A stretch of 64,000 bases of DNA from a virus (taxonomy: Duplodnaviria; Caudoviricetes): positions 2,172 through 66,171 of the IMG/VR virus record IMGVR_UViG_3300049228_000061; one strand, given 5' to 3'. The notes under the pieces are model-generated. The model was not told where the DNA came from. It saw only the letters and a list, made by a program, of their open reading frames with translations, and did no database searches. Position numbers and translations under genes: made by a program. Positions 19,424-61,561 of the stretch are shown in pieces. Each line of letters starts with the position of its first letter. Position 1 is the stretch's first letter.

Positions 19424-22400
19424 ATGGCACTGAACATCGAGGCTGCCCGCAAAGAAGGTTACTCGGACGCGGAGATTGTTGATTACCTGGGTACCCAGCG
19501 TAAGCTAGACATTCGTGCTGCCCGCAAAGAAGGTTACAAAGACAGCGAGATTCTGCAACATCTTGCGTCATCGAATTCATCACCCACCGCACCGCAGGGA
19601 GCCTCGGGCCAAGCGCCAGGGATGGCAAGCGATGGGTTGAAGCGCGCGACGGGTGATTTAGCCACTGGCCGTCCCGAGCTTGACATTCAGGTTGATGATC
19701 CCATCGCACCGGTTGTGACGCCGGAGCCGTCATTCTTGGATCAAGCAAAGCAGGCATGGAATATCGCCATGAATCAGCTGGGCGGACAGACCCTGGAGCA
19801 AGTCCAGATGTCTCACCAGCCGAAGCCTACTTCGGTTCTGGATACAACTTCAGCGGAGGCGCCGGCTTTTGAGAACCCCGCTTCTGTCAGGATTCCGATC
19901 AACAAGAAGTACCGCCAGCAGTTTGAGGAACACTGGGATTCGCTATCAGAGGGCGAGCGGGCACTGATGTCGCGCCAGCCCGGCGTGGCCGGCATGCTGG
20001 CCAAGGAGCGACTCGAGCTATTTGCGAACCAAGACCAAACAGCGCCAGATGCCGCAGACGATCTGGACACCAGGGCAGAGAAGCGCGCCAGCCGACTGGT
20101 AGAGCAAGGCATCGCGCCTGATGTGGCTGCGCTGGCCGCGCGCATGGGCGCCAAGTATGGGGCGCTGCCCGGTACTGAAATGGGTCTGCTTGGCGTGACC
20201 GGCGAAGCCAGCGAATCAGACTTCGATTTCGAGACCGCCGAAGCATTCAACCGCGATGTTGGGTCACAAAATGTTCTCAAGCGTGGCGCTGCCAAGGGCG
20301 CCCTGGGTCTCGGCAAGGCTGTCACCGGCATGGGCGAGTTCATCGCTGATGTGATTGGCACCGAAAGGGTTGGTGAGGCAATTGGTCGAGGCAGCAAGGC
20401 CATCCGTCGCCAAGAGGAAGCAATTGGCGCCAGCCGCGGTGATCTGATGGCGCGCGCCGTTGAGGGCGCTGTGGCCTCTATCGGGCAGCAACTGCCATTC
20501 ATGATGGCTGGCGCCGCAACCGGCGGGGCGGGAATTCCGCTGGCGGCGATTGCCGTCACCTCCTTCGGTAACGAGTACAGCGATGGGCGCAGCCAAGGCC
20601 AGTCGATGGAGCAAGCGCTGGCGCGCGCCTCCATGTATTCAGCATTTGAGGTCATCGGCGAACGGTTTGGATTGGGCGAGCAAATGGAAATGGTGCGTCG
20701 TGCGATGCGCGTCAAGGGCAAGATCCCAGATCAGCGAACGGCTGCTGGGCTGCTGTGGGATATGTTGGTCAAGCAGGTTCCGGGCGAGGTGTTGACCACA
20801 ACTGGCCAATTTTCCACCGACAAGTTCACCGGTGGCGGTGTTGGGCTGTCGCCTGACGCGACCTTTGATGACTACTTCGATCAGGTTGTCGAGACAATCG
20901 CTACCACCATGGTGCAGTCCGTCATGATGGGCGGCGGCACCATGATTCTGTCTGGCAACAAGCCTCCGGCCGACTCACAGCCGCCCAGCACGCCGGGAAT
21001 ACCTGAATCGCAGGCATTCGCAACCGAACCCGAAATTCAGCCGGGAGTGTCAACCAATGCTCAACCTACGCCCCCACCAGCCCCTGCCGCACCTCAAGAA
21101 GCGGCTCCCGCCCTGGCGGGCGAAGCTGCTGGCCCATCCGCCAGCCCTGATACCGCAAGTACGCCCGTTACCATTGACCGTCGGGCTTTGGCTGATGCTT
21201 TCACCATTGACGACGAGGGAACCATCGATGCTGCCCAAGCCACTACCGCTGTACGTGCCCAAGTGGAGTCCGCTTTGGCCGCCGGAACCACGGTCACCCA
21301 AGGACGAGGAAAAAACCGCGTTGCTGTTTCGTCAGCTGATGAAGTCGATGTGCCAGCAATCCTTGCAGGCAAGTCCCGTCTCCAAATTGGTGGACAGCCT
21401 TTACCAGCAACACAGCAAACGAAAGGGGGTGAAATCAATGTCAGCAATCAACAAACGACGAGCCAAGATGATGTGGGACTTGGCAGCGAAGCCAGTGGCC
21501 AAGAGCAAGAAACCCCGCCCGCCGGGCAAGCCGAGCAAGCGGATGCCGTACTAGCCCCCGAGCCGACGCTGGCTGAGAAGGCCAAAGCGCCGGTAGTGAT
21601 CGCACCCAGCGAGGAAGGGCTCACGGTTTCTGTGGACGGGAAACCGCAAGCAACCTACCCGACCAATGAGCTGCCTGAGCCGCTGGTTGCCGCCGAAACA
21701 CCGCCAGATGCTGCACCGAAAAAGCGGTCGATTATCAAGGCTGAGAATGAAGCGCCGAAGCCGGGAAAGGTTGGCGCAATGCTGGGCGCTGGCGAGACAG
21801 TGTTGACGACTACTGGCCGTGAGACATCTCCATTTCCAAAGATCGACATAACCACGAACGGCAAGGCCGGAAATACGGTTAAGCGAGTCGAAAAGTGGCT
21901 GATGGAGAATGCGCTGGCGGAGGCGGAGTCACGCGGCGATGAATTCAATGCGCGGCAGTTCCGCGCAAACTTGAGTAAACCATCGCAGGCAGATAAGGAC
22001 TCTGCTGAGTATTACTTGTTCGATCAGGGCTTCGTTCAGCCGGCACGCAAGTCGGCATTGAAGCCGCTGGTTGAAACACAGCCAGAGACTCCACCCAAGA
22101 AGTCCATCGTCAAGGCTGAGAACGAGAAGCCGACATTGCGGCGCGGCGACTCGGTTTCCTTTCCTATCGATGCTGACGGAAACAGAAACATAGGTGAAAT
22201 CACTTCAATCTTTGGCAACAAGCTCACCGTTACTACTGACGATGGCGCGAGAGTAACTATATCGGCGCGCGGTGCTGAATATGTGAGTAAGGACGCGCCA
22301 GCCACGCCGCAGCCGACGCGAAACATTTCCGGGCCAGAATCCCGTTTGACGAAATCGGCCGTAGATGTTGATCCATTCGCTCCGCCATCGCTTGAGCAGC

Positions 22401-25400
22401 GCTTGCAATCAGATGCCGAGCTGCGCGGCCATCTGGAACGCATGGCATCGGAAGCAGGCTGGGAGGAAGAAGGCGGCAAGCTGATCCGCGCCACCGAGGA
22501 TGAAACCAGCCCTGACTATGGCAAGGTGGTTGGTCGTACCAAGTGGCTGCCGAAGGCATTGTGGTGGGCCGCACGCCCCACTGGCTTCAACGAAAAGCGC
22601 ACCAAGGAAACGATTCGCAAAGCGCTGGCTGGTGAGCCATTGAGCAAACCTGAGCGCCGCATGGTCGAATTTTTGCGCGACGTAGCGGACGGCAAGGTGG
22701 AGGATTTCTTGCCCACCAGGGAAGAAGCGCAGAGCAGCAAACCAGAGGATGTGCTGGATGTGGCACTGGTAGCGCGTATGATCGAGCGTGCCAACGAGAT
22801 AGACGAAGCCGCTGTGGAGCGGCTGGCGATTCAACACGGCGATGACGATGATGGCTTTATGACCGCCATCAAGGAGCTGGTCCATGACACTGACACCCAA
22901 ACAACTGCTGGAAGCGGCGCGCAAAGTGGTCCAGCGCCGAGCGAAAGCCAAGCAGGCAAAACCGAAGCCAAAAAGCCCGTAGGGGATTTGTTCGGCGATG
23001 ATGTTGCCGCCAAGCAGGCCGTCGCAGATGAGGCGCGTAAGCGAGATGCGAAGCGCAACAGCGGCCAAGATTCGCTGGAGACCGGCGACCCATCGGATAT
23101 GTTCAGTCAGGCGAAGAACCAGACTGATTTGATGGATACTCCCGCGCCAAAGAAGGCGCAGGAGGTCAGCAAGAATAAGCTGGTTAGTGATGATGCTGCC
23201 GCCGTTGCGCGCGCCAAAGACAAGACACCAGAGCAGTTTGCCAACTGGGTGCGCGGCCGATACGGCAAACCCAAGGCGAAAGAGCTGACCGAAAGCGGGC
23301 AGGTGGATCGCTGGTATGCGGAGGCGAACCCAGCCAAAGCAGAACCTGTTGTGGAGCCGGAAGCGCCGAAGCCTGTCGAACAAAAGCCTGCGACGCCTGC
23401 CCCAGCAAAGCCGACCGCCAATATCCAGGATTTCGGCCAGAGGATAGAAGGGGCCAGAAAAGACTACGCCGCCAAACTGCGTGATGCGCAAACCGCCGAC
23501 ATCGCCAAGGTGCCGCTGTCTGAATCATGGCCGGAGCCGGATTACGCCAAGCTGCTGGAGGGTGGTGCCGACTCGTGGGCCGTTGGTTTTATGCATGCTG
23601 CGCGCGATGATATTCCCACCAAGCCGCAGAAATCATGGAAGCTGGGGCGGTGGGTTTCACAGGTAACCGGCCTACGTGACATGGTTCAGAAGGTGATGGA
23701 CGGAGCCTATGATCGAGACATGATAGAGGGAAGGGAATCGCTCAAGTCTGTCTATGATCGCATTGAGCTGTATCAAACCGTCGGCCACGACAAGAGCCTG
23801 AAGGGCGTTCGCGTAGTCAGCGGTCATTACAGCGTGTTCAAGGGCATTGAATATAAGCCGTCCAAGACCATCTGGTCGGTTGAAAGCAATGGCAAGCAAA
23901 GCGCTTTGTCGAACTGGCCCAACATGCTTGGACATGGCGACACGCGCGCCGAAGCGATTGCTGCGTTCAAGAAGACTTGGGATGCCACCACACCTGAACA
24001 AGATGCCAAGAAGGCCATCAAGTTTGAACTGTATGGCCGTCGTGCCGACAAGACTTACTTCATTGGCAAGAAAGTCGGCCGGAACGTTGTCGAGTTGAAA
24101 GACGGCTTCACGGATGTCAAAACGGCCAGGGCATACTTGCTGGAGCATCACGACGAGCTGGTCACGCTGTTGGCCAAGAAGAAAGAATTGCCCAGTGAGC
24201 GCCGTGAGGAAAACGCGCCGCGCATTGGCATTGACCATCGCAATGGTGCGGATGTCACGCCAGAGCAGTTCCAAGAAGCCTTTGGGTTCCGTGGAGTTCA
24301 ATTCGGCACGCAGATGGAAGGCGCGCGGCGTCAAGCCGATTTGAATGATTCGTATGATGCGCTGATGGACTTGGCTGGGGTGCTGGGCGTGCCACCCAAA
24401 GCGCTCTCGCTTAACGGCGAACTGGGCTTGGCATTCGGTGCGCGCGGTCACGGTGGCAAGCTGGCACCGAAGGCGCATTACGAACGCGGCGAAGTCGTGA
24501 TCAACCTAACCAAGCGAACAGGTGCAGGCAGTCTGGCGCATGAATGGCTGCATGGCCTGGATAACTACTTCTCGCGACGCGGCGGTAACAAAGCTGGATT
24601 TATTTCGCTGATCCAGAAAGCACCGGAAGGTGTGCGACCAGAATTGTTTGAAGCGTTCAAGAATGTGATTCGTGCGATCAACAGTACTGAGTTGCCGAAG
24701 CGCTCCGGCAAGCTGGATCAGACGCGCAGCAAGCCGTACTGGGTGACCACCGAAGAAATGGTGGCGCGATCCTTCGAGTCTTACATCATTGCCAAACTGC
24801 AAGATCAAGGTGCGTCTAACGATTACCTCGCCAACATTGTGTCGCCCGCGTATTGGGATGCGGCGACCGGATTAGGTATGCAGAAGGATGGCACCTACCC
24901 CTATCCGCTTGAATCTGAGATGCCGATTGTCCGCGCGGCGTTCGATCACTTTTTTGACGTGATTGAGTCGAAGCCTACCGATGCGGGCGTGGCGCTGTAT
25001 CAGCGTGGTGATGCCACCCCCGGCAAGCTGCCGGAGAGGCAGGTTACCGCAGCCATTAACGAAGTCCTGCGCCCATTCCACCGGCGTCCTGTGTTGATCG
25101 TTCGGCAGACCTACGCTCAACTGCCGTCTGATGTGCGCGCGGCCATTGAGCGTCGTGGTGATAAGCCGGGCGACATGCGCGCCATCTACTGGAACGGAAA
25201 GTTCTATGCCGTGGCCGATGATATCCCCTCAATGGAAGCAATCCCTGAGCTGGTGCTGCATGAGGTCGTCGGTCACTTTGGCTTGGATGCCATGCTGACC
25301 GAAGCCGATAAGCAGGCGATTCTGGATGGTTTTTACGACTCCATGACAGACGCCGTGAACGAGCGAGGCGTTCAGGAATTTGGAGCAAAGTGGGATGTTG

Positions 25401-28400
25401 GAAACATCAAAACACGTCGTCTTGCGACAGAAGAAGTGCTGGCTTATCACTTTCAAGACTACCTGAAGGATCGACAGAGCGTGCCGGAGCCAGCGAAGAC
25501 ATGGATGGAGCGACTGAAGGCAAAAATTTCCGCGTTCATCAAAAAAATGTTGAGACTGGCCCCGGTTTACAAACTGCCCAAGCAATACGACCAGACGTTC
25601 ATGAATCGGCTTGCAGATGACCTGTTGCGATCCCTGAAGTCTAACAAGCCACTATCGGGCGATGGCAAGACCAAGGCTGAGGCGGCACGCGATGCCCGCT
25701 ATACCGAGAAGGCTGGCATCTTCTATTCGCATCTGACGCGCTCCGCGCAGTTGGCCAAGATCAGCGTCGGGCGGGGCGAGCAGTGGCTGAACACGCTGCG
25801 CAACATGCCGGGTGTCAAAGCAGAGGAAATTGAAGCCGTAGACCTTGAGCAGTTTCTGGGTGATCGCATCAAGATCAGCAAGCAGGAGGTGGTGGATTAC
25901 CTGGGCTCGAATGGGGTGCAGGTTACGGAGACGGTTCTTGGTGGCGACGGAAAAGTAAAATTCATGGATTCGTTGAGCGCAGCAGAGAGCCAGCGCTTCA
26001 ATGAGCTTCTGAATATCCCGGGCGGCGAATGGAACGGTAACGGCTACTCAGGTGGACGACCACTTACAGCAGAAGAGCAAAGCGAACTATCCGACCTTCA
26101 GGAAACGCACCTTCATGATCGTGTAACAACCGATGCAGCGAGACGCGATGCAGAGAAATCGGCAACCAAGTTCTCCAAATACGCCCTACCCGGTGGCTCC
26201 AACTATCGCGAGCTGCTGCTGACGCTGCCATCTGATACGAAAGCAGAAGATAGTGGTGGTGCGTATTACCGTGAAACGACCGGAGACTTTCGCTCATCCC
26301 ACTGGGATCAACCCAACGTCATCGCCCACATTCGCTTCGATGAACGTGCTGATGCCGATGGCAAGCGCGTGATGCACATCGCTGAGGTACAGAGTGATTG
26401 GCATCAGGCGGGGCGGAAGAAAGGTTATCGGTCTCCTAAAAAAGAAACATCAGTTGCAGATGTAAAATTGGTCAAAGAAGATCAATGGAACTGGTGGCTG
26501 GCAGATGCTAATGGAGATGAGCACAAGGTTAGCAAAGCGGATTACGAACGAACCGGGATAGATAAAGCAAAGCAGGACATTGCTTTCTGGGAAACACGGA
26601 AACTTGCTGACCAGAACTTGCTGGCAGTTCCAAACGCCCCCTTCAAAACCACATGGCCAGAACTCGCGATGAAGCGTGCTATTCGCTACGCCGCTGAGAA
26701 TGGTTTCGACAGGATAACTTGGGACACCGGTGCCACCAATGCGGAGCGGTATGACCTGAGCAAAACACTATCGTCTGTTGCATTGAGCGGCAGCAATTTC
26801 AAGGCGTTCGATCTTGACGGTGAAGAGGTCATGTCACGTACCGGCGTGCGCCCGGAAGATTTGCCAGATTTGATTGGTAAGGACGCTGCCGAGAAGTTAA
26901 TGGCCAAAAAGCCAAATGGAACTCTACGTGTGCTTGAAGGACTAGACCTCAAAGTAGGCGGCGAAGGCATGATTGGCTTCTACGACCGCATCCTGCCCGC
27001 AACGGTCGGCAAGCTGATCAAAAAGTGGGGCGGGAAAATCCTTTCCGTAAGACTGCCAGGATCAGCAACTTATGAACAGCTGAAAGCAGCCGGCACATCA
27101 ACCGGATTGACGCAGGCGCAACTTGATCAAATGCCAGTCGCGGAACGTAAGGCGCTAGTTGATTCAAAATTGCCATTATCCCATGGCTTCAACATCACCG
27201 ACGCCATGCGCCAGTCCGCGATGCAGGGACTGCCACTATTCCAGCGCAATTTGCCAACAGCGAATAAATCCACCCCCACTGCTGGAAAATCAGCCGACCC
27301 AGCCGATGCGCAATGGCAGTACCCGCAAGTAACCAAGCTGGGCGACGGCCGGCTGATCCGGGTGATCAACGGCATTCATAGCCGTGTCGATCAATTCCTG
27401 TATGACCGAGTTGACTACTACTTGGATACTCGCCGAGTGGTGAAAGCAATCGCGCAAAAGCAGGGAGTGGAAACACTGCCTGACAATGTTGATCCGATGC
27501 TGGGCTTGGAGCTGATGCCGCGCCGCATCTCTGATCGTGTCGATACGATGATGAAGGATGAATTCCTGCCGATCTTGGAAAAGATGCACGCGCTCGGCCT
27601 AGATATCAAACGCGTGGAGGATCACTTGCAGTTCCGGCATGCGCGCGAACGCAACGAGACCATAGCGCAGCGCAACCTGAATAATCCTGCCATGCAGGAC
27701 GGTGGCAGCGGCAAGTTTGAGCGAGAGATCGCTGATTACTTCGCAGCACTTGACCCGAAGGACAAAGCCAAGCTGGATGAAGTGGCTGCCATGGTGAAGG
27801 AATACATCAAAGGCACTCGGCAGACACTGGTTGGATATGGCTTGGAAAGCCAGGTCACCATGGATCTGCGCGCCGCAGCGTGGCCGGACTACGTGCCATT
27901 GCAACGAGCTGATTACGAGAACGACGCGGTGTACGGCATTGGCCAAGGCATCAGCGTCAAGGGCTCGGACTCCAAGGCAGCGCTGGGTTCGCACAAAGAG
28001 GTGGTCAACATCCTGTCCAATATCACCAAGCAGCGCGAGCAAGCGATTATTCGTGGCGAGAAAGAGCGCGTGGCCGTGGCGTTGTATGGGTTGGCGGAGA
28101 TGAATCCTAATCCAGATTTTTGGAGCACGACAAACTTGCCGAAAATTCGCCATCTGGATAAGCAGACTGGCCAGGTCGTCAGTCAGACCGACCCGAAGTG
28201 GAAATCACGCGACAATGTGATCGTGGTCAAGAGGCCGAATCGCGCCGGCCGCATCGTCGAGCGCGCCATCGTGTTCAGCGAGCGCAATCCCATGGCAAAG
28301 CGCATGGTGACGGCGCTGAAGGGCTTGGACTTGCCGGAGATGGACAAAAAGACGCGCCTGTTCGGCGCGTATTCGCGGTTCATTTCCGCGATCAACACGC

Positions 28401-30067
28401 AGTGGAGCCCATCGTTCGGCATGGTGAACTTTCATCGTGACTGGCAGGAAGCCATGGCCAATCTGAGCACGACGCCACTGAAAGGCAAGCAGGTAAAGGT
28501 GGCCAACTATTCCCGCAAGGCATTGGGTGGCATCTTTGCCGATGCGCGCGCGCGCCGCAAAGGCAAACATCCGACCTCCGAATGGGCCAAGTGGTATGAG
28601 CGGACGTCGGCGGCCGGCGGCCTGACCGGGTTTCGGGACATGTTTGAGACCGATGCCAAGCGCGCCGACAAGGTGGAGCAACTGTTCAAGCAGCTGGACC
28701 AAGGCATTATTGCCAAAGCGCCCAGAGAAATTGCGGGCCTGATCGAAGACATGAACACCATGTTCGAGTCTGCGGTGCGCGTTGCGGCGTTCCGGGCATA
28801 CGTGGAAATGAAAGCCGCCGAGAATGGCAACACGGATGCGACCAAGACCACCGATTACGATACTTCTTTCGACGCACGCGCCGCACAGATTTCCAAGTCC
28901 ATCACCGTGAACTTCAACAAGCGCGGTCGCCTCGGCTATTCGATGAATGCTTGGTATGCGTTCAGCAATGCCATCATCCAGGGCGTGGGCCGTAACTACG
29001 AAACACTCACCGGGCCACGTGGCCGAGCCATCATCGGCGGAGCACTGCTGGTGGGCGCGTTGCAAGCGTTCTGGCTGGCCGCTGCTGGCTTTGACGATGA
29101 TGACGATGAATCCACCCACATCGATTCGTTCGTGAAGAATCGTAGCTTCCTGATTCCCACCGGCGATGGCACCTACAAACAGTGGCCCATACCGCACGGC
29201 TTACGTTGGATCGTGGCCTTGGGGCGCATAGTGACCGAGCAGGCCATCCACAAAGGCAAGACAGCAGGAGATGCCGCCAGCGAGAGCTTTGGCGTGCTGA
29301 TGGATGCCTTTAACCCGCTGGGCACCAGTGGCAGCCTGTTGCAGATGGCGGCGCCCACCATCGCCGACATTCCGGCTGGCTTGGCAGAGAACAAGAACTA
29401 CCTTGGCCGATCAATCTATCTGGAAGGCTATGGCGACAGCGACCCCACCCCAGGCTTCGCGCGCCAGAAAGACACCGCCACGCCCGTCGGGAAGGTGGTG
29501 GCCAGAGTGATGAATACCCTGAGTGGCGGCAGCGACTTCACGCGCGGCATGGGTTCCGATGGCCGGTTTGTGGGCGACCTGTTCAGCCCGACCCCGGACC
29601 ATGTTGATTACCTCATTCAGCAACTCACCGGCGGCCCTGGGCGTGAAATTTCCAAGATTTGGCAGACCGGCGAGTCCATGTTGACCGGCGAAGACCTGCC
29701 CACCTACAAAGTGCCGCTGTGGGGCATGATTTCTGGCTCAGTGAATGAGCGCGCCGCAGAGCGCAATGCGTTCTACAAGCTGGCCACCGAAGGCGCCAAG
29801 CACAAAGCGGAGCTGGAAGGGCGTCAGGCTGATCCGTTTGGCTCGCAACAGACGCTGGATGATTACCTCAAGGAGCATCCTGGTTATCGCGGCCCCATGA
29901 TCGCGGCCACCAATGCGCAAAAGCTCAGCACCATTCGCAGCGAGAAACGTAAAGCGGCAGCCAATGGCGCGACTCAGGAGCAGCTGAATGCGTATGATGA
30001 CCGCGCCGCAGCGCTCATCACCAAGACGCTGCAGCGCAATAAAGAACTTCGTCAGGAAGCCCGCTGA
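19424..30067 (+). CDS. giant ejection / large polyvalent protein (LPD5-, LPD1-, LPD38-like and HExxH domains)
   Basis: 3547 aa; duplicated N-terminal AARKEGYxDxEI; IQDFGQRIEGARKD; GFRGVQFG...GSLAHEWLHGLDNY; LHEVVGHFGL; C-terminal ITVNFNKRG region. Confidence 0.85.
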   Translation: MALNIEAARKEGYSDAEIVDYLGTQRKLDIRAARKEGYKDSEILQHLASSNSSPTAPQGASGQAPGMASDGLKRATGDLATGRPELDIQVDDPIAPVVTPEPSFLDQAKQAWNIAMNQLGGQTLEQVQMSHQPKPTSVLDTTSAEAPAFENPASVRIPINKKYRQQFEEHWDSLSEGERALMSRQPGVAGMLAKERLELFANQDQTAPDAADDLDTRAEKRASRLVEQGIAPDVAALAARMGAKYGALPGTEMGLLGVTGEASESDFDFETAEAFNRDVGSQNVLKRGAAKGALGLGKAVTGMGEFIADVIGTERVGEAIGRGSKAIRRQEEAIGASRGDLMARAVEGAVASIGQQLPFMMAGAATGGAGIPLAAIAVTSFGNEYSDGRSQGQSMEQALARASMYSAFEVIGERFGLGEQMEMVRRAMRVKGKIPDQRTAAGLLWDMLVKQVPGEVLTTTGQFSTDKFTGGGVGLSPDATFDDYFDQVVETIATTMVQSVMMGGGTMILSGNKPPADSQPPSTPGIPESQAFATEPEIQPGVSTNAQPTPPPAPAAPQEAAPALAGEAAGPSASPDTASTPVTIDRRALADAFTIDDEGTIDAAQATTAVRAQVESALAAGTTVTQGRGKNRVAVSSADEVDVPAILAGKSRLQIGGQPLPATQQTKGGEINVSNQQTTSQDDVGLGSEASGQEQETPPAGQAEQADAVLAPEPTLAEKAKAPVVIAPSEEGLTVSVDGKPQATYPTNELPEPLVAAETPPDAAPKKRSIIKAENEAPKPGKVGAMLGAGETVLTTTGRETSPFPKIDITTNGKAGNTVKRVEKWLMENALAEAESRGDEFNARQFRANLSKPSQADKDSAEYYLFDQGFVQPARKSALKPLVETQPETPPKKSIVKAENEKPTLRRGDSVSFPIDADGNRNIGEITSIFGNKLTVTTDDGARVTISARGAEYVSKDAPATPQPTRNISGPESRLTKSAVDVDPFAPPSLEQRLQSDAELRGHLERMASEAGWEEEGGKLIRATEDETSPDYGKVVGRTKWLPKALWWAARPTGFNEKRTKETIRKALAGEPLSKPERRMVEFLRDVADGKVEDFLPTREEAQSSKPEDVLDVALVARMIERANEIDEAAVERLAIQHGDDDDGFMTAIKELVHDTDTQTTAGSGAQSGPAPSESQAGKTEAKKPVGDLFGDDVAAKQAVADEARKRDAKRNSGQDSLETGDPSDMFSQAKNQTDLMDTPAPKKAQEVSKNKLVSDDAAAVARAKDKTPEQFANWVRGRYGKPKAKELTESGQVDRWYAEANPAKAEPVVEPEAPKPVEQKPATPAPAKPTANIQDFGQRIEGARKDYAAKLRDAQTADIAKVPLSESWPEPDYAKLLEGGADSWAVGFMHAARDDIPTKPQKSWKLGRWVSQVTGLRDMVQKVMDGAYDRDMIEGRESLKSVYDRIELYQTVGHDKSLKGVRVVSGHYSVFKGIEYKPSKTIWSVESNGKQSALSNWPNMLGHGDTRAEAIAAFKKTWDATTPEQDAKKAIKFELYGRRADKTYFIGKKVGRNVVELKDGFTDVKTARAYLLEHHDELVTLLAKKKELPSERREENAPRIGIDHRNGADVTPEQFQEAFGFRGVQFGTQMEGARRQADLNDSYDALMDLAGVLGVPPKALSLNGELGLAFGARGHGGKLAPKAHYERGEVVINLTKRTGAGSLAHEWLHGLDNYFSRRGGNKAGFISLIQKAPEGVRPELFEAFKNVIRAINSTELPKRSGKLDQTRSKPYWVTTEEMVARSFESYIIAKLQDQGASNDYLANIVSPAYWDAATGLGMQKDGTYPYPLESEMPIVRAAFDHFFDVIESKPTDAGVALYQRGDATPGKLPERQVTAAINEVLRPFHRRPVLIVRQTYAQLPSDVRAAIERRGDKPGDMRAIYWNGKFYAVADDIPSMEAIPELVLHEVVGHFGLDAMLTEADKQAILDGFYDSMTDAVNERGVQEFGAKWDVGNIKTRRLATEEVLAYHFQDYLKDRQSVPEPAKTWMERLKAKISAFIKKMLRLAPVYKLPKQYDQTFMNRLADDLLRSLKSNKPLSGDGKTKAEAARDARYTEKAGIFYSHLTRSAQLAKISVGRGEQWLNTLRNMPGVKAEEIEAVDLEQFLGDRIKISKQEVVDYLGSNGVQVTETVLGGDGKVKFMDSLSAAESQRFNELLNIPGGEWNGNGYSGGRPLTAEEQSELSDLQETHLHDRVTTDAARRDAEKSATKFSKYALPGGSNYRELLLTLPSDTKAEDSGGAYYRETTGDFRSSHWDQPNVIAHIRFDERADADGKRVMHIAEVQSDWHQAGRKKGYRSPKKETSVADVKLVKEDQWNWWLADANGDEHKVSKADYERTGIDKAKQDIAFWETRKLADQNLLAVPNAPFKTTWPELAMKRAIRYAAENGFDRITWDTGATNAERYDLSKTLSSVALSGSNFKAFDLDGEEVMSRTGVRPEDLPDLIGKDAAEKLMAKKPNGTLRVLEGLDLKVGGEGMIGFYDRILPATVGKLIKKWGGKILSVRLPGSATYEQLKAAGTSTGLTQAQLDQMPVAERKALVDSKLPLSHGFNITDAMRQSAMQGLPLFQRNLPTANKSTPTAGKSADPADAQWQYPQVTKLGDGRLIRVINGIHSRVDQFLYDRVDYYLDTRRVVKAIAQKQGVETLPDNVDPMLGLELMPRRISDRVDTMMKDEFLPILEKMHALGLDIKRVEDHLQFRHARERNETIAQRNLNNPAMQDGGSGKFEREIADYFAALDPKDKAKLDEVAAMVKEYIKGTRQTLVGYGLESQVTMDLRAAAWPDYVPLQRADYENDAVYGIGQGISVKGSDSKAALGSHKEVVNILSNITKQREQAIIRGEKERVAVALYGLAEMNPNPDFWSTTNLPKIRHLDKQTGQVVSQTDPKWKSRDNVIVVKRPNRAGRIVERAIVFSERNPMAKRMVTALKGLDLPEMDKKTRLFGAYSRFISAINTQWSPSFGMVNFHRDWQEAMANLSTTPLKGKQVKVANYSRKALGGIFADARARRKGKHPTSEWAKWYERTSAAGGLTGFRDMFETDAKRADKVEQLFKQLDQGIIAKAPREIAGLIEDMNTMFESAVRVAAFRAYVEMKAAENGNTDATKTTDYDTSFDARAAQISKSITVNFNKRGRLGYSMNAWYAFSNAIIQGVGRNYETLTGPRGRAIIGGALLVGALQAFWLAAAGFDDDDDESTHIDSFVKNRSFLIPTGDGTYKQWPIPHGLRWIVALGRIVTEQAIHKGKTAGDAASESFGVLMDAFNPLGTSGSLLQMAAPTIADIPAGLAENKNYLGRSIYLEGYGDSDPTPGFARQKDTATPVGKVVARVMNTLSGGSDFTRGMGSDGRFVGDLFSPTPDHVDYLIQQLTGGPGREISKIWQTGESMLTGEDLPTYKVPLWGMISGSVNERAAERNAFYKLATEGAKHKAELEGRQADPFGSQQTLDDYLKEHPGYRGPMIAATNAQKLSTIRSEKRKAAANGATQEQLNAYDDRAAALITKTLQRNKELRQEAR

Positions 30068-55734: not shown

Positions 55735-57708
55735 ATGCAAGACATCAAGGTCACGCCGATCCAATTCAAGCAGACGTTTCAGGATGCTGAAATGTACAGA
55801 GGCGCCGCCGATATGCTGAATCGTGCTGCGCAGAATATTGCTCCACCACCGCAAGCTGGTAGCGCGCCGATTGTCATGGTGCGCACCATTGAGCAAACCA
55901 GAAAGGATCAGGCATGGGAGGCTGAGGAACTGGCGCGCAAGCAGTGGCGGAAGATCGAGGCGTTCAAGGCAACGCTGGGTACTGAGGAATCCGAGTTCTT
56001 TGCGTCAATCGTGGCTGCGCAGAGCGTGAATTGCCCTCCACTGGAGGCAAACAAGCATGCGGTCGGGCTTATCAATGCCAACCGCGAAGCGCGCAAGATT
56101 GCCAATTCGCCGCCAACCGATGCCGATAACCCGCAGGGTCAATCAAGGACAGTCATTGATCTATCTCACGTTCAGCCGCTGTCCAATGGCGACACCATTG
56201 AGATTACCCATGATGGCGAGGGCAATCTGATTAGCCATCGCGTGACCTATGAAGGCGAGGCAGAAGAAGTGTCAGGGATCGCCCTTGCCGCACAAGCCGA
56301 CACCACAACGATTGCCGACGCCGAGCGCATCAAGTACGAAAAGATGTGGCAGTTCGAGCAGTACCGCGCTGTAGCGCCTGGCGAAGGCATTGCTTCACGC
56401 TTCATGGACATCGCCAAACCCAAGGCTGGCAGCGAGGTCATCGACTTTGGCGCTGGCACGGGTCGCGGCGCGCTGATGTTGGCGATTATGGGCATGAAGG
56501 TGAAGATGCTGGACTTCGCCACCAACTGCTTGGACGAGGACGTGCGCAATGCGCTAACTACTCAGGCGCATGTGCTGAGCTTTGCCAAGCAGGATCTGCG
56601 TAAGTCCGTGCCGCATGTGGCTGAGTACGGGTACTGCACTGATGTGATGGAGCACATCGAGCCAAGCCAAGTGACGACGGTGGTCGGCAACATCTTGCGC
56701 AGTGCCCAGCATGTGTTTTTCCAGATCAGCTGTGTTGATGACGTCTGCGGTGCCCTGATCGGCGAGCCGCTGCACCTGTCCGTGCATCCCTATGCCTGGT
56801 GGCACGACCTGTTCACCCAGCTGGGCTGCGTGTTCCATTGGTCGAAGGACGAAGGCGACAGCTGCCTGTTCTACGTCTCCGGCTGGATCAAGGGCAAGGA
56901 CATGGTGGACGTCGGCGTGCTGAACATCACGATGGAGCAGGTTCGCGCAAATGTTGAGCACAATATGAATCAAGGCTGGCAGCAGGTGTCGCCGCATGCC
57001 ACCAACGATACGGAGGTGATGATTCTGGGCAGCGGACCGTCGCTGGGTCGAAGTCTGGAGGATATTCGCCGCCTCAAGGCGGAAGGCGTGAAGATCATCA
57101 CGCTGAACGGTGCCTACCAGTGGTGCCGGCAGAATGACCTGCTACCCGTCAATCAGGTGGTGGTTGACGCCAGGCCGTTCAATGACCGGTTCACGCGCCC
57201 AGTCGAGGAAGGCTGCAACTACTTCATTGCCAGCCAGTGCGATCCATCTGTGCTGGAAGGGCTACCAAAGGACCGAACCTGGCTGTGGCACACCACGGCT
57301 GAATCCATCAAGGACATTCTGGATAAGCACGAAGGCGTGTCATGGGGCATTCCCGGCGGCTCAACCGTGCTTCTGCGTGCTATCCCCATGTTCAGAATGC
57401 TGGGCTTCACCAAATTCCACCTGTTTGGCTGCGATTCCTGCTGCGATGAGGACGGGGCGCACCACACGACCCTGCAACCTGAGAACAACAACACCCCATT
57501 TCCGGTGATTGTGGGCGGCCGCCAGTTCCTATGCCACCCAGATCAGTTCTCCCAAGCCCAAGAGTTCATGGATCTGATCAAGATGATGGGCAATGTGATC
57601 GAACTGGAGGTCTATGGCAATGGCCTGCTGGCCTGGATTCTCAAGACGGGGGCCAGTTTGGCCGATTCGACCGCGACCCCTACGGCTGATGAAGAATTTG
57701 TGTTGTAA
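55735..57708 (+). CDS. class I SAM methyltransferase fused to a Maf/MptE-like (DUF115) domain
   Basis: VIDFGAGTGRG and YCTDVMEHI; then ILGSGPSL, ITLNGA, VVVDAR, FIASQCDP, GGSTV.LRAI and FHLFGCDSC. Confidence 0.8.
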   Translation: MQDIKVTPIQFKQTFQDAEMYRGAADMLNRAAQNIAPPPQAGSAPIVMVRTIEQTRKDQAWEAEELARKQWRKIEAFKATLGTEESEFFASIVAAQSVNCPPLEANKHAVGLINANREARKIANSPPTDADNPQGQSRTVIDLSHVQPLSNGDTIEITHDGEGNLISHRVTYEGEAEEVSGIALAAQADTTTIADAERIKYEKMWQFEQYRAVAPGEGIASRFMDIAKPKAGSEVIDFGAGTGRGALMLAIMGMKVKMLDFATNCLDEDVRNALTTQAHVLSFAKQDLRKSVPHVAEYGYCTDVMEHIEPSQVTTVVGNILRSAQHVFFQISCVDDVCGALIGEPLHLSVHPYAWWHDLFTQLGCVFHWSKDEGDSCLFYVSGWIKGKDMVDVGVLNITMEQVRANVEHNMNQGWQQVSPHATNDTEVMILGSGPSLGRSLEDIRRLKAEGVKIITLNGAYQWCRQNDLLPVNQVVVDARPFNDRFTRPVEEGCNYFIASQCDPSVLEGLPKDRTWLWHTTAESIKDILDKHEGVSWGIPGGSTVLLRAIPMFRMLGFTKFHLFGCDSCCDEDGAHHTTLQPENNNTPFPVIVGGRQFLCHPDQFSQAQEFMDLIKMMGNVIELEVYGNGLLAWILKTGASLADSTATPTADEEFVL

Positions 57709-57716
57709 TCCGCGCC

Positions 57717-58247
57717 ATGCCACGCCAGCCATCAACATGTTCGGTTCAGGATTGCGAAATACTCGCCAATCGTGGCAATGGTATGTGCGAGAAGCACTAC
57801 TATCGGCTGCGACGACATGGCGATGTTGAGAAGCGTTTGCGGAATGCCAACGGCGAAGGGACAGCCATCAAGGTGGGAAAATACTCGCGCGTCACCATCA
57901 ATGGAGAGCGGGTGCAGGCACATGTGGCCATCGTTGAGGCGGTGCTTGGCCGATCTCTGCCAGCTGGTGCAGAGATTCATCACGTAAACGAAGACAAGAC
58001 CGATAACCGCCACGAGAATTTGGTGGTCTGCCCTGATCGTGCTTATCACCAACTGCTGCATGCCCGCACCCGCGCCTTGGATTCTTGTGGCGATGCAAAT
58101 AAGCGAACCTGCCGGCATTGCCACGAGTATGATTCGCTCGACCAGTTGGTCAAGAACGGAACCAGCTATTATCATTTGGCGTGCGCAGCCGGGTACCAGC
58201 GTGAATATAAAACAAAGCAGCGAGGTAGCAATGCAGTAACAACTTAA
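57717..58247 (+). CDS. free-standing HNH homing endonuclease
   Basis: CS...C....G.GMCEKHY.R.RRHGD zinc finger; AHV.I.E..LGR.L....IHHVNEDKTDNRHENL; C-terminal CxxC. Confidence 0.9.
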   Translation: MPRQPSTCSVQDCEILANRGNGMCEKHYYRLRRHGDVEKRLRNANGEGTAIKVGKYSRVTINGERVQAHVAIVEAVLGRSLPAGAEIHHVNEDKTDNRHENLVVCPDRAYHQLLHARTRALDSCGDANKRTCRHCHEYDSLDQLVKNGTSYYHLACAAGYQREYKTKQRGSNAVTT

Positions 58248-58269
58248 CTTAACTGCGTAGGAGGCTACC

Positions 58270-58989
58270 TTGGCCGCTGGAACTTGGAAGATCGGTTAGG
58301 TCTCGCCGTGCAGTAATGCACGGTAGTAACGACGTGAATTGTCGGGAACCCTTAACGAGTGATGTCGATGGGAATCCGCAGCCAAGCGCCGTAGGAATAC
58401 GGTGAAGGTTCAGAGACTAGAGAAAGTAGGCCAGACCGGTTGAAATCTCCACGAGCGCGTCGCACCCCACGCGGGTGAAGAGATAGTCCCAGCCTCCGTG
58501 GAAACGCGGAGTGATCGGATAAAGAGCCGATCTATAAGGCGCTGTTACGCGAAAGCGAAAAAGTACATCGGGGCCGGGACCATCACCCTCGGCGCTGGCG
58601 TCATGAAAATGCAGCTGCACCGCGCTTCGGCGTCTGCGGCTATTCTCGTTCTCTCAACCCGTTCTACAAACGCATCGATTCCGGGCGAAATCTCGGCGAC
58701 GGGCGGGTATGTGGCGAACGGTCGAAACCTGGTGCCGGCAACGGCGCAATGGACGGTTGGCGCATCGGCCAAGCAGTACAAGTTCACCTACACCACGGCT
58801 GGTTTGGTGTTCACTGCGTCGGGTGCTGCACTGAACAACATCAAGTACGCCCTGATCCGTAATAGTACGGGCGCTGGTGCGGGCAAGGTGTTGTGCTTCT
58901 GCACGTTGTCAACGGCGGCGTTCACGATTGCGAGCGGAAATACGCTTACGATTGCTCCGGCTTCGACCGGCGTCTTCACATTGGCATGA
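58270..58989 (+). CDS. intron-split putative virion protein, join(58270..58292,58545..58989), 155 aa
   Basis: AGGAGG then TTG start; the spliced product reads MAAGTWKI|YAKAKKYIGAGTITLGAG... in one frame; unspliced it stops at TAG 58297. Confidence 0.85.
58293..58544 (+). ncRNA. group I self-splicing intron (IA-like, no internal ORF, 252 nt)
   Basis: P AATTGTCGGGAA (58337), Q AATCCGCAGC (58373), R GTTCAGAGACTA (58408), S AAGAGATAGTCC (58478); P1 with U.G wobble; P3, P7 and P9.0; terminal G 58544. Confidence 0.95.
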
Positions 58990-59047
58990 CGGTAAAGGTA
59001 TTGCACGCTGGCTTAGTAAAAATAAGCCAGTTGTGCAATGCGCCACC

Positions 59048-61561
59048 ATGGGCACCAATATCTACTACAGCGGATTTCTGATCCGCAATGCGTTGCGAAT
59101 ACCGCCCGCCGCCAGTATGTCAATGGCCGGTGTGGCTCCAACGATTACCAATAGCGCGCCGGATGTAACTGCTCCCACTACGCCTACGATCACAGCCACA
59201 CAAACTGGTAGTACATCGGTCAGCATTGCGTTGACCGCAGCCAGCACGGACGCAGTAGGCGTAACTGGGTATGAGCTGGACTGGAGTCCCAACGGTAGCA
59301 GCAGCTGGGCAAATTTGCCGGGTGTTACGGTAGCAGGATCATTCCCGTACACGCATACCTCACTTGCACCCAGTACTCAGTATTTTTACCGCTGCCGTTC
59401 GCGTGATCTGGCGGGTAATTTTAGTAATTACGGCTCCTCGAATGCAACGACTGCCGCCGCCAGTGGCGCAGTATTTGAGCGCACCATCACGCCTGCGAGT
59501 GATCCATCCGATGCGTTTGCAAAATACGATTTTGTTGATTCAGATAATGGCGCTCAATATACGTTCGGCATTGACTGCTGGAATCAGTCAGCAAATGGGT
59601 TTGGAACACACTATGGTTATTTCAACAGTAAAAATGATTGGGGAATTGCAGCAAGCCATCAAAATTTAACCCCTGGAGCTGTTAAAGCCTACACTAGCAT
59701 TTTACGTGGTTGGAAGCCTTCTGAAAACATTCGCAGTAGTGGCGACGATTTAACCGTCGGCATCCTCACCACAAGTATTACAAAATTAAAAATCAGCTGG
59801 GGGTACAGCAGCCCTTCTACAAGTACTGGATCGGGTTCCACTGCTTCAAATAGATACAATACGCTGATTGATTTTCATTTTACCGCGACGGCGACGGCCA
59901 CCTCGGCAACTCCGCAAACGACGAGTGTGATGTGGCAACCTCGAACAATAGATACTGATGGGTATTATGGGGGGTTGGCCAGCGTTGCACCTCAGTATGT
60001 ATTGGGCGGCATTACCTGTAGAGTCTTGGTAGATAGCCGATCCTGGGCAACGGGTAACACCATACAAATCTGGCCTGTACCCTGGAATGATTTCCTGAAT
60101 TTCGGTTATCAGGACATGGAGGTAGACTTTGCCGCCGTGTTCGCCGATCTAAGAACACTGACCTTTCTGCCTAGCGATGAGTACCTAAATGGGTATGAAG
60201 TTGGCGTTGAGCCCATTGCAGGCGGTATGCATACAACCACACGGTTCTGGTCTGCGATTCAAAGCGAAGCGGATATAGGCACGTCAGGCGACACTACTGC
60301 ACCGACAGCTGGAACATATACAGCCACGACTAATAGCTCCAGTCAAATCACCATCGCACAAACCACGGCGCCCACTGATAATGTTGCAGTTGTGCAAAAT
60401 GATTTAGAGCGTTCACCCAATGGAACTACCGGATGGGCGCAGATATTTTCTAATACCACATTCCCGCGTCAGGACAACGGACTTACTGGCAGCACGCAGT
60501 ATTTCTACAGAGTAAAACACTCTGATGCTGCGGGCAATTTTAGTTACTCAAGCACAATCAACAATACAACCAACGCGGCAAGCGGTGGTGCGCCTGGTGT
60601 GCCAACTAATGTAGAGGTTACAGCCTTTGCTCAAAATTCGATTTCTGTGCAATGCACGGCAGTTGCTGGGGCCACATCGTATACGTGGAGTCGGTCAACT
60701 GATAACGGTGGCTCATGGTCTGATTTAGCCACGGTTACATCCGCGTTTTACACAGACAACACAGCGACTGGTGCAACAGCGTATGTGGGTGATTACCTAC
60801 CGGGAGCGCCTCCCACTCGCTACGTGTATCGTGTAAAGGCTAACAACGGTGCAGGTAGCAGCGCATACACAACTGATGTATTTTTCAGTGTCTATAGAAA
60901 CGGCGTGCAGGGTTGGGTTTATAGCTTAAACTTTGGTGCAACGGTGACGCCGAATTACGCGAGCACCGGGCCAGATGGTAATGCTACCGTGCAGCATGTG
61001 AGTGGGTCTGGGTGGCAACCGGTGTCAAGCGGTAACTCGATGTTTACAAACATGCCGTCAAATATGTTCGCCTACAAAATACTGAAAGTTAAGCCGCTGT
61101 CATCTGGCTGGAACGGCTTTCTGAACCCTGTCTCCGTGGGAGATAGATTCTTCCATCCTGGTGGCGTAAACATGGCCTCAAATGTCACTGCACCAACGCC
61201 CGGTGTCATGACCGCAAATGTGTGGAATACCGTAAAAATCTCCTATGCGGACCTACTATTAGTTGACGTAACAGGTACAGCCTCATTTGCTGGTGGCGTG
61301 ATGACAGTGACTTCTGCGAGTGCTAACAGTCTGCGCAGGGGCATGATTATCGGGGCGACTGGCTTGAATTCTGGCTGTCAGATCGACACGCAAACCAGTG
61401 GTACAACGGGAGGTAGTGGTACCTATACGCTCTACAACAATACTCAAACACTCAGCAGTCGTTCAATATATGCCTCAGGCACCGACCAATACAAATGGTA
61501 CATTGACGTGCCCAGCAATTCTGCATATCTGGTTGATGATGTGAGGGATAGTCGGCAATGA
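59048..61561 (+). CDS. fibre / receptor-binding protein with fibronectin type III repeats and a GH12-like domain (start uncertain)
   Basis: Three Fn3-like units (WSPNG..YFYRCR, YFYRVK, YVYRVKA) around a GH12-like region. Confidence 0.75.
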   Translation: MGTNIYYSGFLIRNALRIPPAASMSMAGVAPTITNSAPDVTAPTTPTITATQTGSTSVSIALTAASTDAVGVTGYELDWSPNGSSSWANLPGVTVAGSFPYTHTSLAPSTQYFYRCRSRDLAGNFSNYGSSNATTAAASGAVFERTITPASDPSDAFAKYDFVDSDNGAQYTFGIDCWNQSANGFGTHYGYFNSKNDWGIAASHQNLTPGAVKAYTSILRGWKPSENIRSSGDDLTVGILTTSITKLKISWGYSSPSTSTGSGSTASNRYNTLIDFHFTATATATSATPQTTSVMWQPRTIDTDGYYGGLASVAPQYVLGGITCRVLVDSRSWATGNTIQIWPVPWNDFLNFGYQDMEVDFAAVFADLRTLTFLPSDEYLNGYEVGVEPIAGGMHTTTRFWSAIQSEADIGTSGDTTAPTAGTYTATTNSSSQITIAQTTAPTDNVAVVQNDLERSPNGTTGWAQIFSNTTFPRQDNGLTGSTQYFYRVKHSDAAGNFSYSSTINNTTNAASGGAPGVPTNVEVTAFAQNSISVQCTAVAGATSYTWSRSTDNGGSWSDLATVTSAFYTDNTATGATAYVGDYLPGAPPTRYVYRVKANNGAGSSAYTTDVFFSVYRNGVQGWVYSLNFGATVTPNYASTGPDGNATVQHVSGSGWQPVSSGNSMFTNMPSNMFAYKILKVKPLSSGWNGFLNPVSVGDRFFHPGGVNMASNVTAPTPGVMTANVWNTVKISYADLLLVDVTGTASFAGGVMTVTSASANSLRRGMIIGATGLNSGCQIDTQTSGTTGGSGTYTLYNNTQTLSSRSIYASGTDQYKWYIDVPSNSAYLVDDVRDSRQ

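Follow-up and report, generated by a model that had tools for sequence, protein, structure and literature searches.

A Predicted Group I Intron without an Open Reading Frame in a Putative Tail-associated Phage Gene, with Candidate Homing Endonucleases Upstream

The Locus

The window analyzed here is a 64-kb stretch of a 66,171-bp virus record from IMG/VR (IMGVR_UViG_3300049228_000061). Its source is an uncultured, podovirus-like phage, probably a phage of Proteobacteria with high GC (guanine plus cytosine) content. Codon 8 of a gene for a 155-residue, apparently tail-associated protein is interrupted by 252 nt (58293-58544) that are very likely a functional group I intron of the IA type, lacking an open reading frame (ORF) of its own. 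Genes for a small terminase, a portal, and an MptE-like/methyltransferase fusion lie upstream in that order, and a gene for an 837-residue protein with Fn3 repeats lies downstream. A free-standing HNH endonuclease gene forms a discrete insertion between the fusion gene and the interrupted gene.

Intron Call and Restored Reading Frame

The Rfam group I model RF00028 matches the window at 59.6 bits (gathering cut-off 50, E 1.3e-12), and the whole record, window included, has no second match. This search bears out the group I call made in a preliminary description of the locus, which used the sequence letters without database searches. The coordinates of the match (58249-58511) are offset from the true intron ends because the model laid its P1 and P2 on the 5' untranslated region and stopped at P9.

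In group I introns, the 5' exon ends in U and the intron ends in G. Only a 5' site after U58292 combined with a 3' site after G58544 obeys both rules and restores the reading frame. Excision then joins TTG58270...AAGAU to UUACGC and yields a 155-residue protein starting MAAGTWKIYAKAKKY, whose 147-codon remainder opens at 58546 and closes at TGA58989. The TTG at 58270 aligns with the ATG or GTG start codons of relatives.

Homologues show the same length and N terminus. Searching with exon 2 finds 1942 homologues, and the best 120 of these 1942 are all exactly 155 residues long (8 + 147). Eleven N termini were read, and each starts MAAGTWKI, like the MAAGTWKIYAKAKKY of the spliced product, or with a close variant, as the preliminary description had anticipated. 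The best homologue, P0002, is 97% identical over exon 2, and its first 27 residues are identical to those of the spliced product. A phmmer search run exhaustively against 1.84 billion representatives gave 227 matches. In nearly all of those that are full-length, the first query residue falls on residue 9, so that eight residues precede the exon 2 start; the sampled N termini are of the MAA.AW type down to ∼30% identity. Intronless DNA reads AAG ATC TAT (L001) or AAG ATA TTC (L002) across the insertion site. Because only the U58292/G58544 pair satisfies both the splice-site rules and the frame, the K-I-Y-A junction and 155-residue length proposed earlier are confirmed as far as sequence comparison reaches.

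Read without splicing, the frame meets a TAG at 58297-58299, inside P1 and shortly after the 5' splice site, just as had been described. The ORF listing gives only a 163-residue frame from GTG58498, which starts inside P9 and accounts for the false N terminus suspected in the preliminary description. No ORF of endonuclease size is present in the intron, only chance frames: a 37-residue frame inside it on the minus strand and a 67-residue frame that overlaps it.

Secondary Structure and Covariation

The structure (Table 1) was written in window coordinates and projected onto an alignment of seven intron sequences, the window intron and six variants described below. In this alignment, 96.8% of cells are paired, compared with 31-39% when the partners are slid by 1-3 columns. 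Twenty-one pairs are changed on both sides, as against 1-4 in the slid controls, and the covariation score was reached by none of 500 shuffles. Compensatory changes occur in each of P2, P3, P6a, P7.1, P7.2, P9, and P9.1, and P5a carries such changes as well. P4, P5, P6, and P7 are invariant across the seven variants. The single-sequence fold of the intron has a z of -3.1. P7 is the guanosine-binding helix of group I introns and is pseudoknotted with P3.

The terminal G, the U.G wobble of P1, and the in-frame UAG are kept in all seven variants, the UAG lying two to five codons into the intron. The P1 pairing of the window recurs in L094, L010, and L015, where it extends to 8 bp. For L097, a 4-bp GAUC/GGUC version was found by eye and was not returned by fold prediction. 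The L015 intron lacks P2.

The IA assignment follows from P7.1 and P7.2, which lie between P7 and the 3' strand of P3 and are named among the classifying features of group I introns (PMC3984707). They correspond to the extra segment that the preliminary description had read as an IA trait. A narrower, IA2-like placement would have a single lead, the similarity to DNA polymerase introns of SPO1-like phages. Most of the core elements listed in the preliminary description lie where it placed them, but it overlooked P9.1, and its P9.0 is supported only in part.

Several points weigh against a functional intron with exactly these ends. P9.0 is conserved only in part: by eye, three pairs form in three of the seven variants and two pairs in three others, and none can be placed in L015. 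No convincing P10 was seen when one was sought by eye at the window-type insertion site. Self-splicing, the exact junction, and the dependence of the protein on splicing are moreover inferred from sequence.

Table 1. Coordinates of the predicted intron, its host gene, its helices, and neighboring or related elements (window positions unless a locus is named; aa, amino acids)
Feature	Position	Strand	Remarks
HNH endonuclease gene, free-standing, 176 aa	57717-58247	+	Pfam HNH_3 (PF13392); candidate homing endonuclease
Ribosome-binding site GGAGG	58260-58264	+	read from sequence; 5 nt before TTG; aligns with GGAGG/GGAGA of relatives
Exon 1, coding part, 23 nt	58270-58292	+	TTG start, MAAGTWK plus first two bases of codon 8
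Predicted group I intron, 252 nt, subgroup IA type	58293-58544	+	RF00028, covariation, restored conserved 155-aa frame
Exon 2	58545-58989	+	third base of codon 8, 147 codons, TGA stop
P1	58289-58303	+	A58289-C58293 with G58299-U58303 (AGAU of exon and C of intron with GGUCU); U58292.G58300 wobble; 5-bp hairpin predicted
P2, 7 bp, GUAA (GNRA) loop	58306-12/58317-23	+	5/7 pairs changed on both sides
P3	58330-36/58456-62	+	100% paired, 2 pairs covary; agrees with Rfam alignment
P4	58340-46/58375-80	+	invariant, fully paired
P5	58349-51/58370-72	+	invariant, fully paired
P5a hairpin	within 58340-58380	+	variable in sequence and length; chosen columns pair in 47.6% of cells
P6	58381-83/58407-09	+	invariant
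P6a, GGAA loop	58387-93/58398-404	+	98% paired, 5/7 pairs covary
P7, GACUA/UAGUC	58415-19/58484-88	+	invariant, paired in 7/7 variants
P7.1	58420-23/58446-49	+	100% paired, 2 pairs changed on both sides
P7.2	58429-32/58438-41	+	100% paired, one pair changed on both sides, one on one side
P8 hairpin	58463-67/58473-77	+	94% paired
P9, 7 bp, GAAA loop	58494-500/58505-11	+	100% paired, one covarying pair, loop invariant
P9.1 hairpin, 6 bp, invariant AUAAAGAG loop	58513-18/58527-32	+	100% paired, 3 pairs covary
Possible P9.0, AGC/GCU, and terminal G	58491-93/58541-43; G58544	+	partly conserved, by eye
Shifted-site introns	L011:2736-3016, L007:2731-3010		relatives of window 58285-58554
NUMOD3 + Phage_endo_I-like (PD-(D/E)XK-type) ORFs	L010:2138-2785, L011:1994-2773, L015:2025-2933		immediately upstream of intron-bearing gene

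Variants, Insertion Sites, and Distribution

A BLAST search of the intron against the fetched loci, together with two pattern scans, found six further variants in the homologous gene of other viral or metagenome contigs. They are 78-92% identical to the window intron: L094 (92%), the L011 group (84%), L097 and L007 (83% each), L010 (82%), and L015 (78%).

Two insertion sites are in use. The introns of the window, L094, L097, L010, and L015 follow AAGAU and carry the guide GGUC(U). Those of L011 and L007 follow UACGCU, 6 nt downstream, between codons 10 and 11. Their exon 2 starts AAGGCG or AAAGCG, and their P1 is GCUC/GGGC, with a re-tuned guide. They also have a 4-bp P10 that covaries, GCCU/AGGC in one form and GCUU/AAGC in the other. 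Splicing at either site would restore ...WKIYAKAKKY.

Among 86 loci with the 155-residue gene, 10 bear the intron (in 7 distinct variants) and 76 are intronless. In a maximum-likelihood tree of exon 2, the intron-bearing alleles are scattered rather than forming one clade, which implies at least four state changes. Intronless alleles are the tree partners of both the window (L001, support 81/92) and L015 (L017, 97/93); L010, L011, and L097 form one clade (100/99) that holds both insertion sites. Exon 2 is open in the intron-bearing alleles, and its differences, judged by eye, fall largely at third codon positions, both of which suggest that the gene is in use.

Start codons differ as well. TTG or GTG is the start codon in two of the seven alleles with the intron (window 58270-58272 and L015:2744-2746), compared with ATG in all 18 intronless alleles checked. 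In so small a sample the difference could be accidental; alternatively, a weak start could lessen the conflict between ribosomes and the folding of P1.

Proposed Splicing Mechanism and Its Consequences

A mechanism can be proposed from the established chemistry of the group I family. P1 would form between the AGAU that ends the 5' exon and the internal guide GGUCU, with U58292.G58300 as the wobble. An external guanosine bound in P7 would attack after U58292. Terminal G58544 would then enter the guanosine site, and the exons would be ligated so that AAG AU is followed by U UAC. In the expected ligated RNA, ...UGGAAGAU would run directly into UUACGCGAAA, and the message would read MAAGTWK-I-YAKAKKY. 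Because of the UAG in P1, unspliced RNA would give only a 9-residue peptide, and production of the protein would therefore depend on splicing. An early in-frame stop of this kind is common in bacterial and phage group I introns (PMC3984707).

Two other accounts of the element have to be set against a working intron that is simply removed. In one, the intron is a decayed relic that no longer splices, and the gene is either dead or expressed from unspliced RNA as the 163-residue frame starting at GTG58498. ORF callers do report that frame, but its 16 extra residues fall in P9 and P9.1, and no such N terminus occurs among the homologues read. All core helices are intact and maintained by compensatory changes across the seven variants; exon 1, the start codon, and the ribosome-binding site are retained in frame, and exon 2 shows the open frame and third-position differences noted above. 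Taken together, these features make a relic highly improbable. The other account grants splicing but makes it a regulatory gate that tunes the supply of the tail protein to late-infection conditions. The short exon 1 would bring the ribosome-binding site, the weak TTG, and the UAG up to P1, so that translation would compete with P1 formation. P1 lies 19 nt from the start codon and contains the stop codon, the non-ATG starts are found among intron-bearing alleles, and translation affects the splicing of T4 introns (reviewed in PMC3984707). However, early in-frame stops are generic for introns of this kind (PMC3984707), the start-codon sample is small, and no regulatory need is apparent, since most relatives do without the intron. 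Such a gate is unlikely. The suggestion in the preliminary description that splicing conditions might control virion assembly is speculation that goes too far.

The Host Protein

Sequence searches reveal little about the 155-residue protein. Pfam has no family for it, and its only PHROGs match is phrog_644, annotated as function unknown. A tblastn search of 50,697 GenBank phage records with exon 2 gave no match, nor did a search of PDB sequences with the family profile. Foldseek found no PDB match at E ≤ 0.001.

Structure prediction is more informative. An AlphaFold2 model of an intronless orthologue with 97% identity, built with 96 aligned relatives, has a predicted local distance difference test score (pLDDT) of 84.5 and a predicted template modeling score (pTM) of 0.82. 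When the model was aligned with 48,161 PDB representatives, the top matches were phage tail parts only. They include a baseplate chain of Klebsiella phage KP1 (9f4a_AY; Z 13.1, root mean square deviation (rmsd) 2.4, 131 residues aligned), the Bxb1 tail tip (9d93_Ra; Z 9.1, rmsd 2.3, 101 aligned), the fibre-tail adaptor of Ralstonia phage GP4 (8jou_a; Z 8.8, rmsd 3.3, 121 aligned), the HFTV1 tail (9h4p_BD; Z 7.9), and the tail fibres of phage 7-7-1 (9rkv_A; Z 5.0). Matches in BFVD include the N-terminal domain of a phage 7-7-1 “structural protein” and many proteins annotated as tail-collar fibre. The protein thus shares a predicted fold with the GP4 adaptor and with the 9f4a_AY, 9d93_Ra, and 9rkv_A domains but has no sequence-level similarity to them. 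These matches to tail, baseplate, and fibre-adaptor chains support, at fold level only, a tail-associated virion protein, in keeping with the structural role first proposed for the gene.

Neighboring Nucleases and Possible Homing

The product of the gene upstream of the intron-bearing gene matches HNH_3 (PF13392) at 47.1 bits (cut-off 24.8, E 1.9e-12) and also matches 13 PHROG families annotated as HNH endonuclease. The distance from the end of the gene is 22 nt to the start codon and 45 nt to the intron insertion site. Local BLAST segments shared with L001, the nearest intronless relative of the window, break off at 57719 and resume at 58546. Both the HNH gene and the intron are therefore absent from L001, whose intergenic region at this point measures 77 nt.

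In L010, L011, L015, L094, and L097, the upstream slot holds a NUMOD3 + Phage_endo_I-like gene. A nuclease ORF from one of these two unrelated families occupies the slot in six of the seven intron variants and in none of the 76 intronless loci. Fewer than 100 nt separate the upstream gene from the start codon in 72 of the 76, so that most intronless loci have no room for a nuclease ORF. In L010 and L011, the nuclease frame crosses exon 1 and extends into the P1-P2 part of the intron. The L015 frame overlaps exon 1 and the first intron helices, and the L011 ORF appears to end at the UAA of the P2 loop.

One interpretation, which stands at about even chances, is that the HNH gene encodes a free-standing homing endonuclease that spreads together with the intron by collaborative homing. 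Cleavage of intronless alleles by the putative enzyme close to the insertion site, followed by gene conversion during repair, would spread the nuclease gene and intron jointly. The intron would shield its own genome by splitting the HNH target. The alternative, a realistic one that falls somewhat short of even chances, is that the two are independent selfish insertions that came to lie side by side by chance. The HNH enzyme would then target an intergenic homing site of its own or have a role in packaging or elsewhere, and the intron would be inherited vertically or moved by reverse splicing or general recombination. Speaking against such a coincidence are the two unrelated nuclease families that fill the slot in intron-bearing loci only, the want of space for an ORF in nearly all intronless loci, and the short distances from the HNH gene to the start codon and insertion site. 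Several observations weigh on the other side, against homing and for independence. L007 bears the intron without a nuclease gene, and the closest relative of the window intron, L094, has the other nuclease family upstream. Only two independent contrasts lie on well-supported branches of the tree, and four on all branches; all have the same direction, but the sign test is not significant, so that with relatedness allowed for, the few contrasts leave the association between intron and nuclease not significant. Relatives of the HNH protein in IMG/VR are only distant (35-56% identical over parts of the protein), and no copy of the intron was found in their loci; conversely, no related HNH gene turned up beside the intron variants of other contigs. 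HNH genes in phage morphogenesis regions can also have other roles.

The family of loci could also record, in its present-day variants, how intron and endonuclease have evolved together, a joint reading that is put forward tentatively and with less than even confidence. The HNH_3 and the NUMOD3 + endonuclease-I-like families may each have settled in one slot beside an ORF-less intron, and both may target the conserved first ten codons of the tail gene. The intron may meanwhile have moved by 6 nt, its guide re-tuned to GGGC in place of GGUCU and a 4-bp P10 newly added. Nuclease ORFs that overlap exon 1 and P1-P2 may represent an intermediate on the way from a free-standing to an intron-encoded endonuclease.

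The intronless locus L017, the sister of intron- and nuclease-bearing L015, has a 684-nt gap upstream of the 155-residue gene (L017:2311-2977) with no plus-strand ORF of at least 70 residues. This gap may hold the remains of a nuclease gene that decayed once the intron was lost.

Relation to Known Introns

Documented phage group I introns are mostly in DNA-metabolism genes. The window intron resembles the T4 td, nrdB, and sunY introns and the DNA polymerase introns of SPO1-like Bacillus phages (subgroup IA2) in interrupting a phage protein-coding gene, in having P7.1/P7.2 between P7 and the 3' strand of P3, in its GNRA-capped P2 and P9, and in its U.G wobble, terminal G, and in-frame stop just inside the intron. 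In Bacillus phages Hakuna and OmnioDeoPrimus, the DNA polymerase gene is split by a sequence that shares 72% identity with the core of the window intron over ∼195 nt. Unlike the T4 and SPO1-like introns, the window intron lacks an internal ORF, lies only 23 nt into the coding sequence, interrupts a putative tail-associated structural gene rather than a DNA-metabolism gene, and belongs to a high-GC phage, probably of Proteobacteria.

The preliminary description overstated how unusual an intron in a structural gene is, since such cases are rare but documented. Cluster J mycobacteriophages have group I introns in capsid and minor tail genes, with splicing demonstrated by reverse transcription-PCR (PMC3706429). 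The BAKA tail-gene intron is, like that of the window, ORF-less, and is ∼265 nt long. The Cluster J introns differ in being experimentally proven, whereas the window intron is predicted from sequence. A further intron in a structural gene is probably present in Bacillus phage Tavor_SA, where a gap in the tape-measure gene matches the core of the window intron at 69%. Both the Cluster J introns and the putative Tavor_SA intron lie in other host genes and other phage lineages. In the Tavor_SA record, the tape-measure gene is annotated as two coding sequences 257 nt apart (L106:2502-2758; KY963369.1 9240-9496), and no intron feature is annotated in that stretch.

Separation of intron and nuclease also has precedents. 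The ORF-less psbA intron of cyanophage S-PM2 with the free-standing F-CphI (PMC6083498) and the Aeh1 nrdA/mobE pair are cases of collaborative, or trans, homing (Zeng et al. 2009; Bonocora & Shub 2009; both as reviewed in PMC3984707). The locus described here is similar in its endonuclease-less intron, in a nuclease gene that stands apart from the intron yet directly adjoins the interrupted gene, and in its patchy distribution among relatives. It differs in the nuclease families (HNH_3 in the window, NUMOD3 + endonuclease-I-like in relatives) and in the location of the nuclease gene, which is upstream in an intergenic slot and has a putative homing role.

Precedents thus exist for an intron in a phage structural gene, for an ORF-less intron with a free-standing nuclease, and for an early in-frame stop (PMC3706429, PMC3984707). 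New here are the insertion site shifted by 6 nt, the scattered alleles, the upstream nucleases in six of seven variants, and the tail-protein fold match. A probable virion structural gene of a high-GC phage thereby joins those with a well-supported group I intron, and the general understanding of group I intron action is unchanged. For annotation, the consequence is practical: because gene calling yields a false 163-residue ORF that starts inside the intron, the tail protein receives the wrong N terminus, an error that is probably repeated in every intron-bearing relative. The intronless alleles, the two sites 6 nt apart, and the two nuclease families in one slot make a compact, testable system in which to ask how an ORF-less intron and a free-standing homing endonuclease work together and how one supplants another.

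Sequences more distantly related to the intron core (∼79% over ∼100 nt) occur in other genes of other contigs, at L093:5151-6272 and L091:7839-9151, each with a nearby ORF bearing a LAGLIDADG-like motif.

Genomic Surroundings

The portal of the window is 38-43% identical to its best-matching portals, those of an Achromobacter phage and 933W-like Stx phages, and is distantly related to portals of a phage set that includes Ralstonia phages. Directly 3' of the portal gene, a 657-residue protein (55735-57708) combines an MptE-like domain (PF01973) with a region resembling S-adenosylmethionine-dependent methyltransferases that scores below Pfam cut-offs. This protein is kept upstream of the 155-residue gene in relatives, and the L002 copy adds a DSPc phosphatase domain. 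A scan of 57500-59200 for promoters and terminators gave nothing above shuffles.

A 3547-residue ORF (19424-30067) had prompted the guess that the virus is N4-like, which is unsupported. The ORF matches only phrog_616 and phrog_14770, both PHROGs of unknown function, and is not confirmed as an N4-type virion RNA polymerase. A tRNA gene with a CAU anticodon lies on the minus strand at 1007-1078 (RF00005, 64.4 bits).

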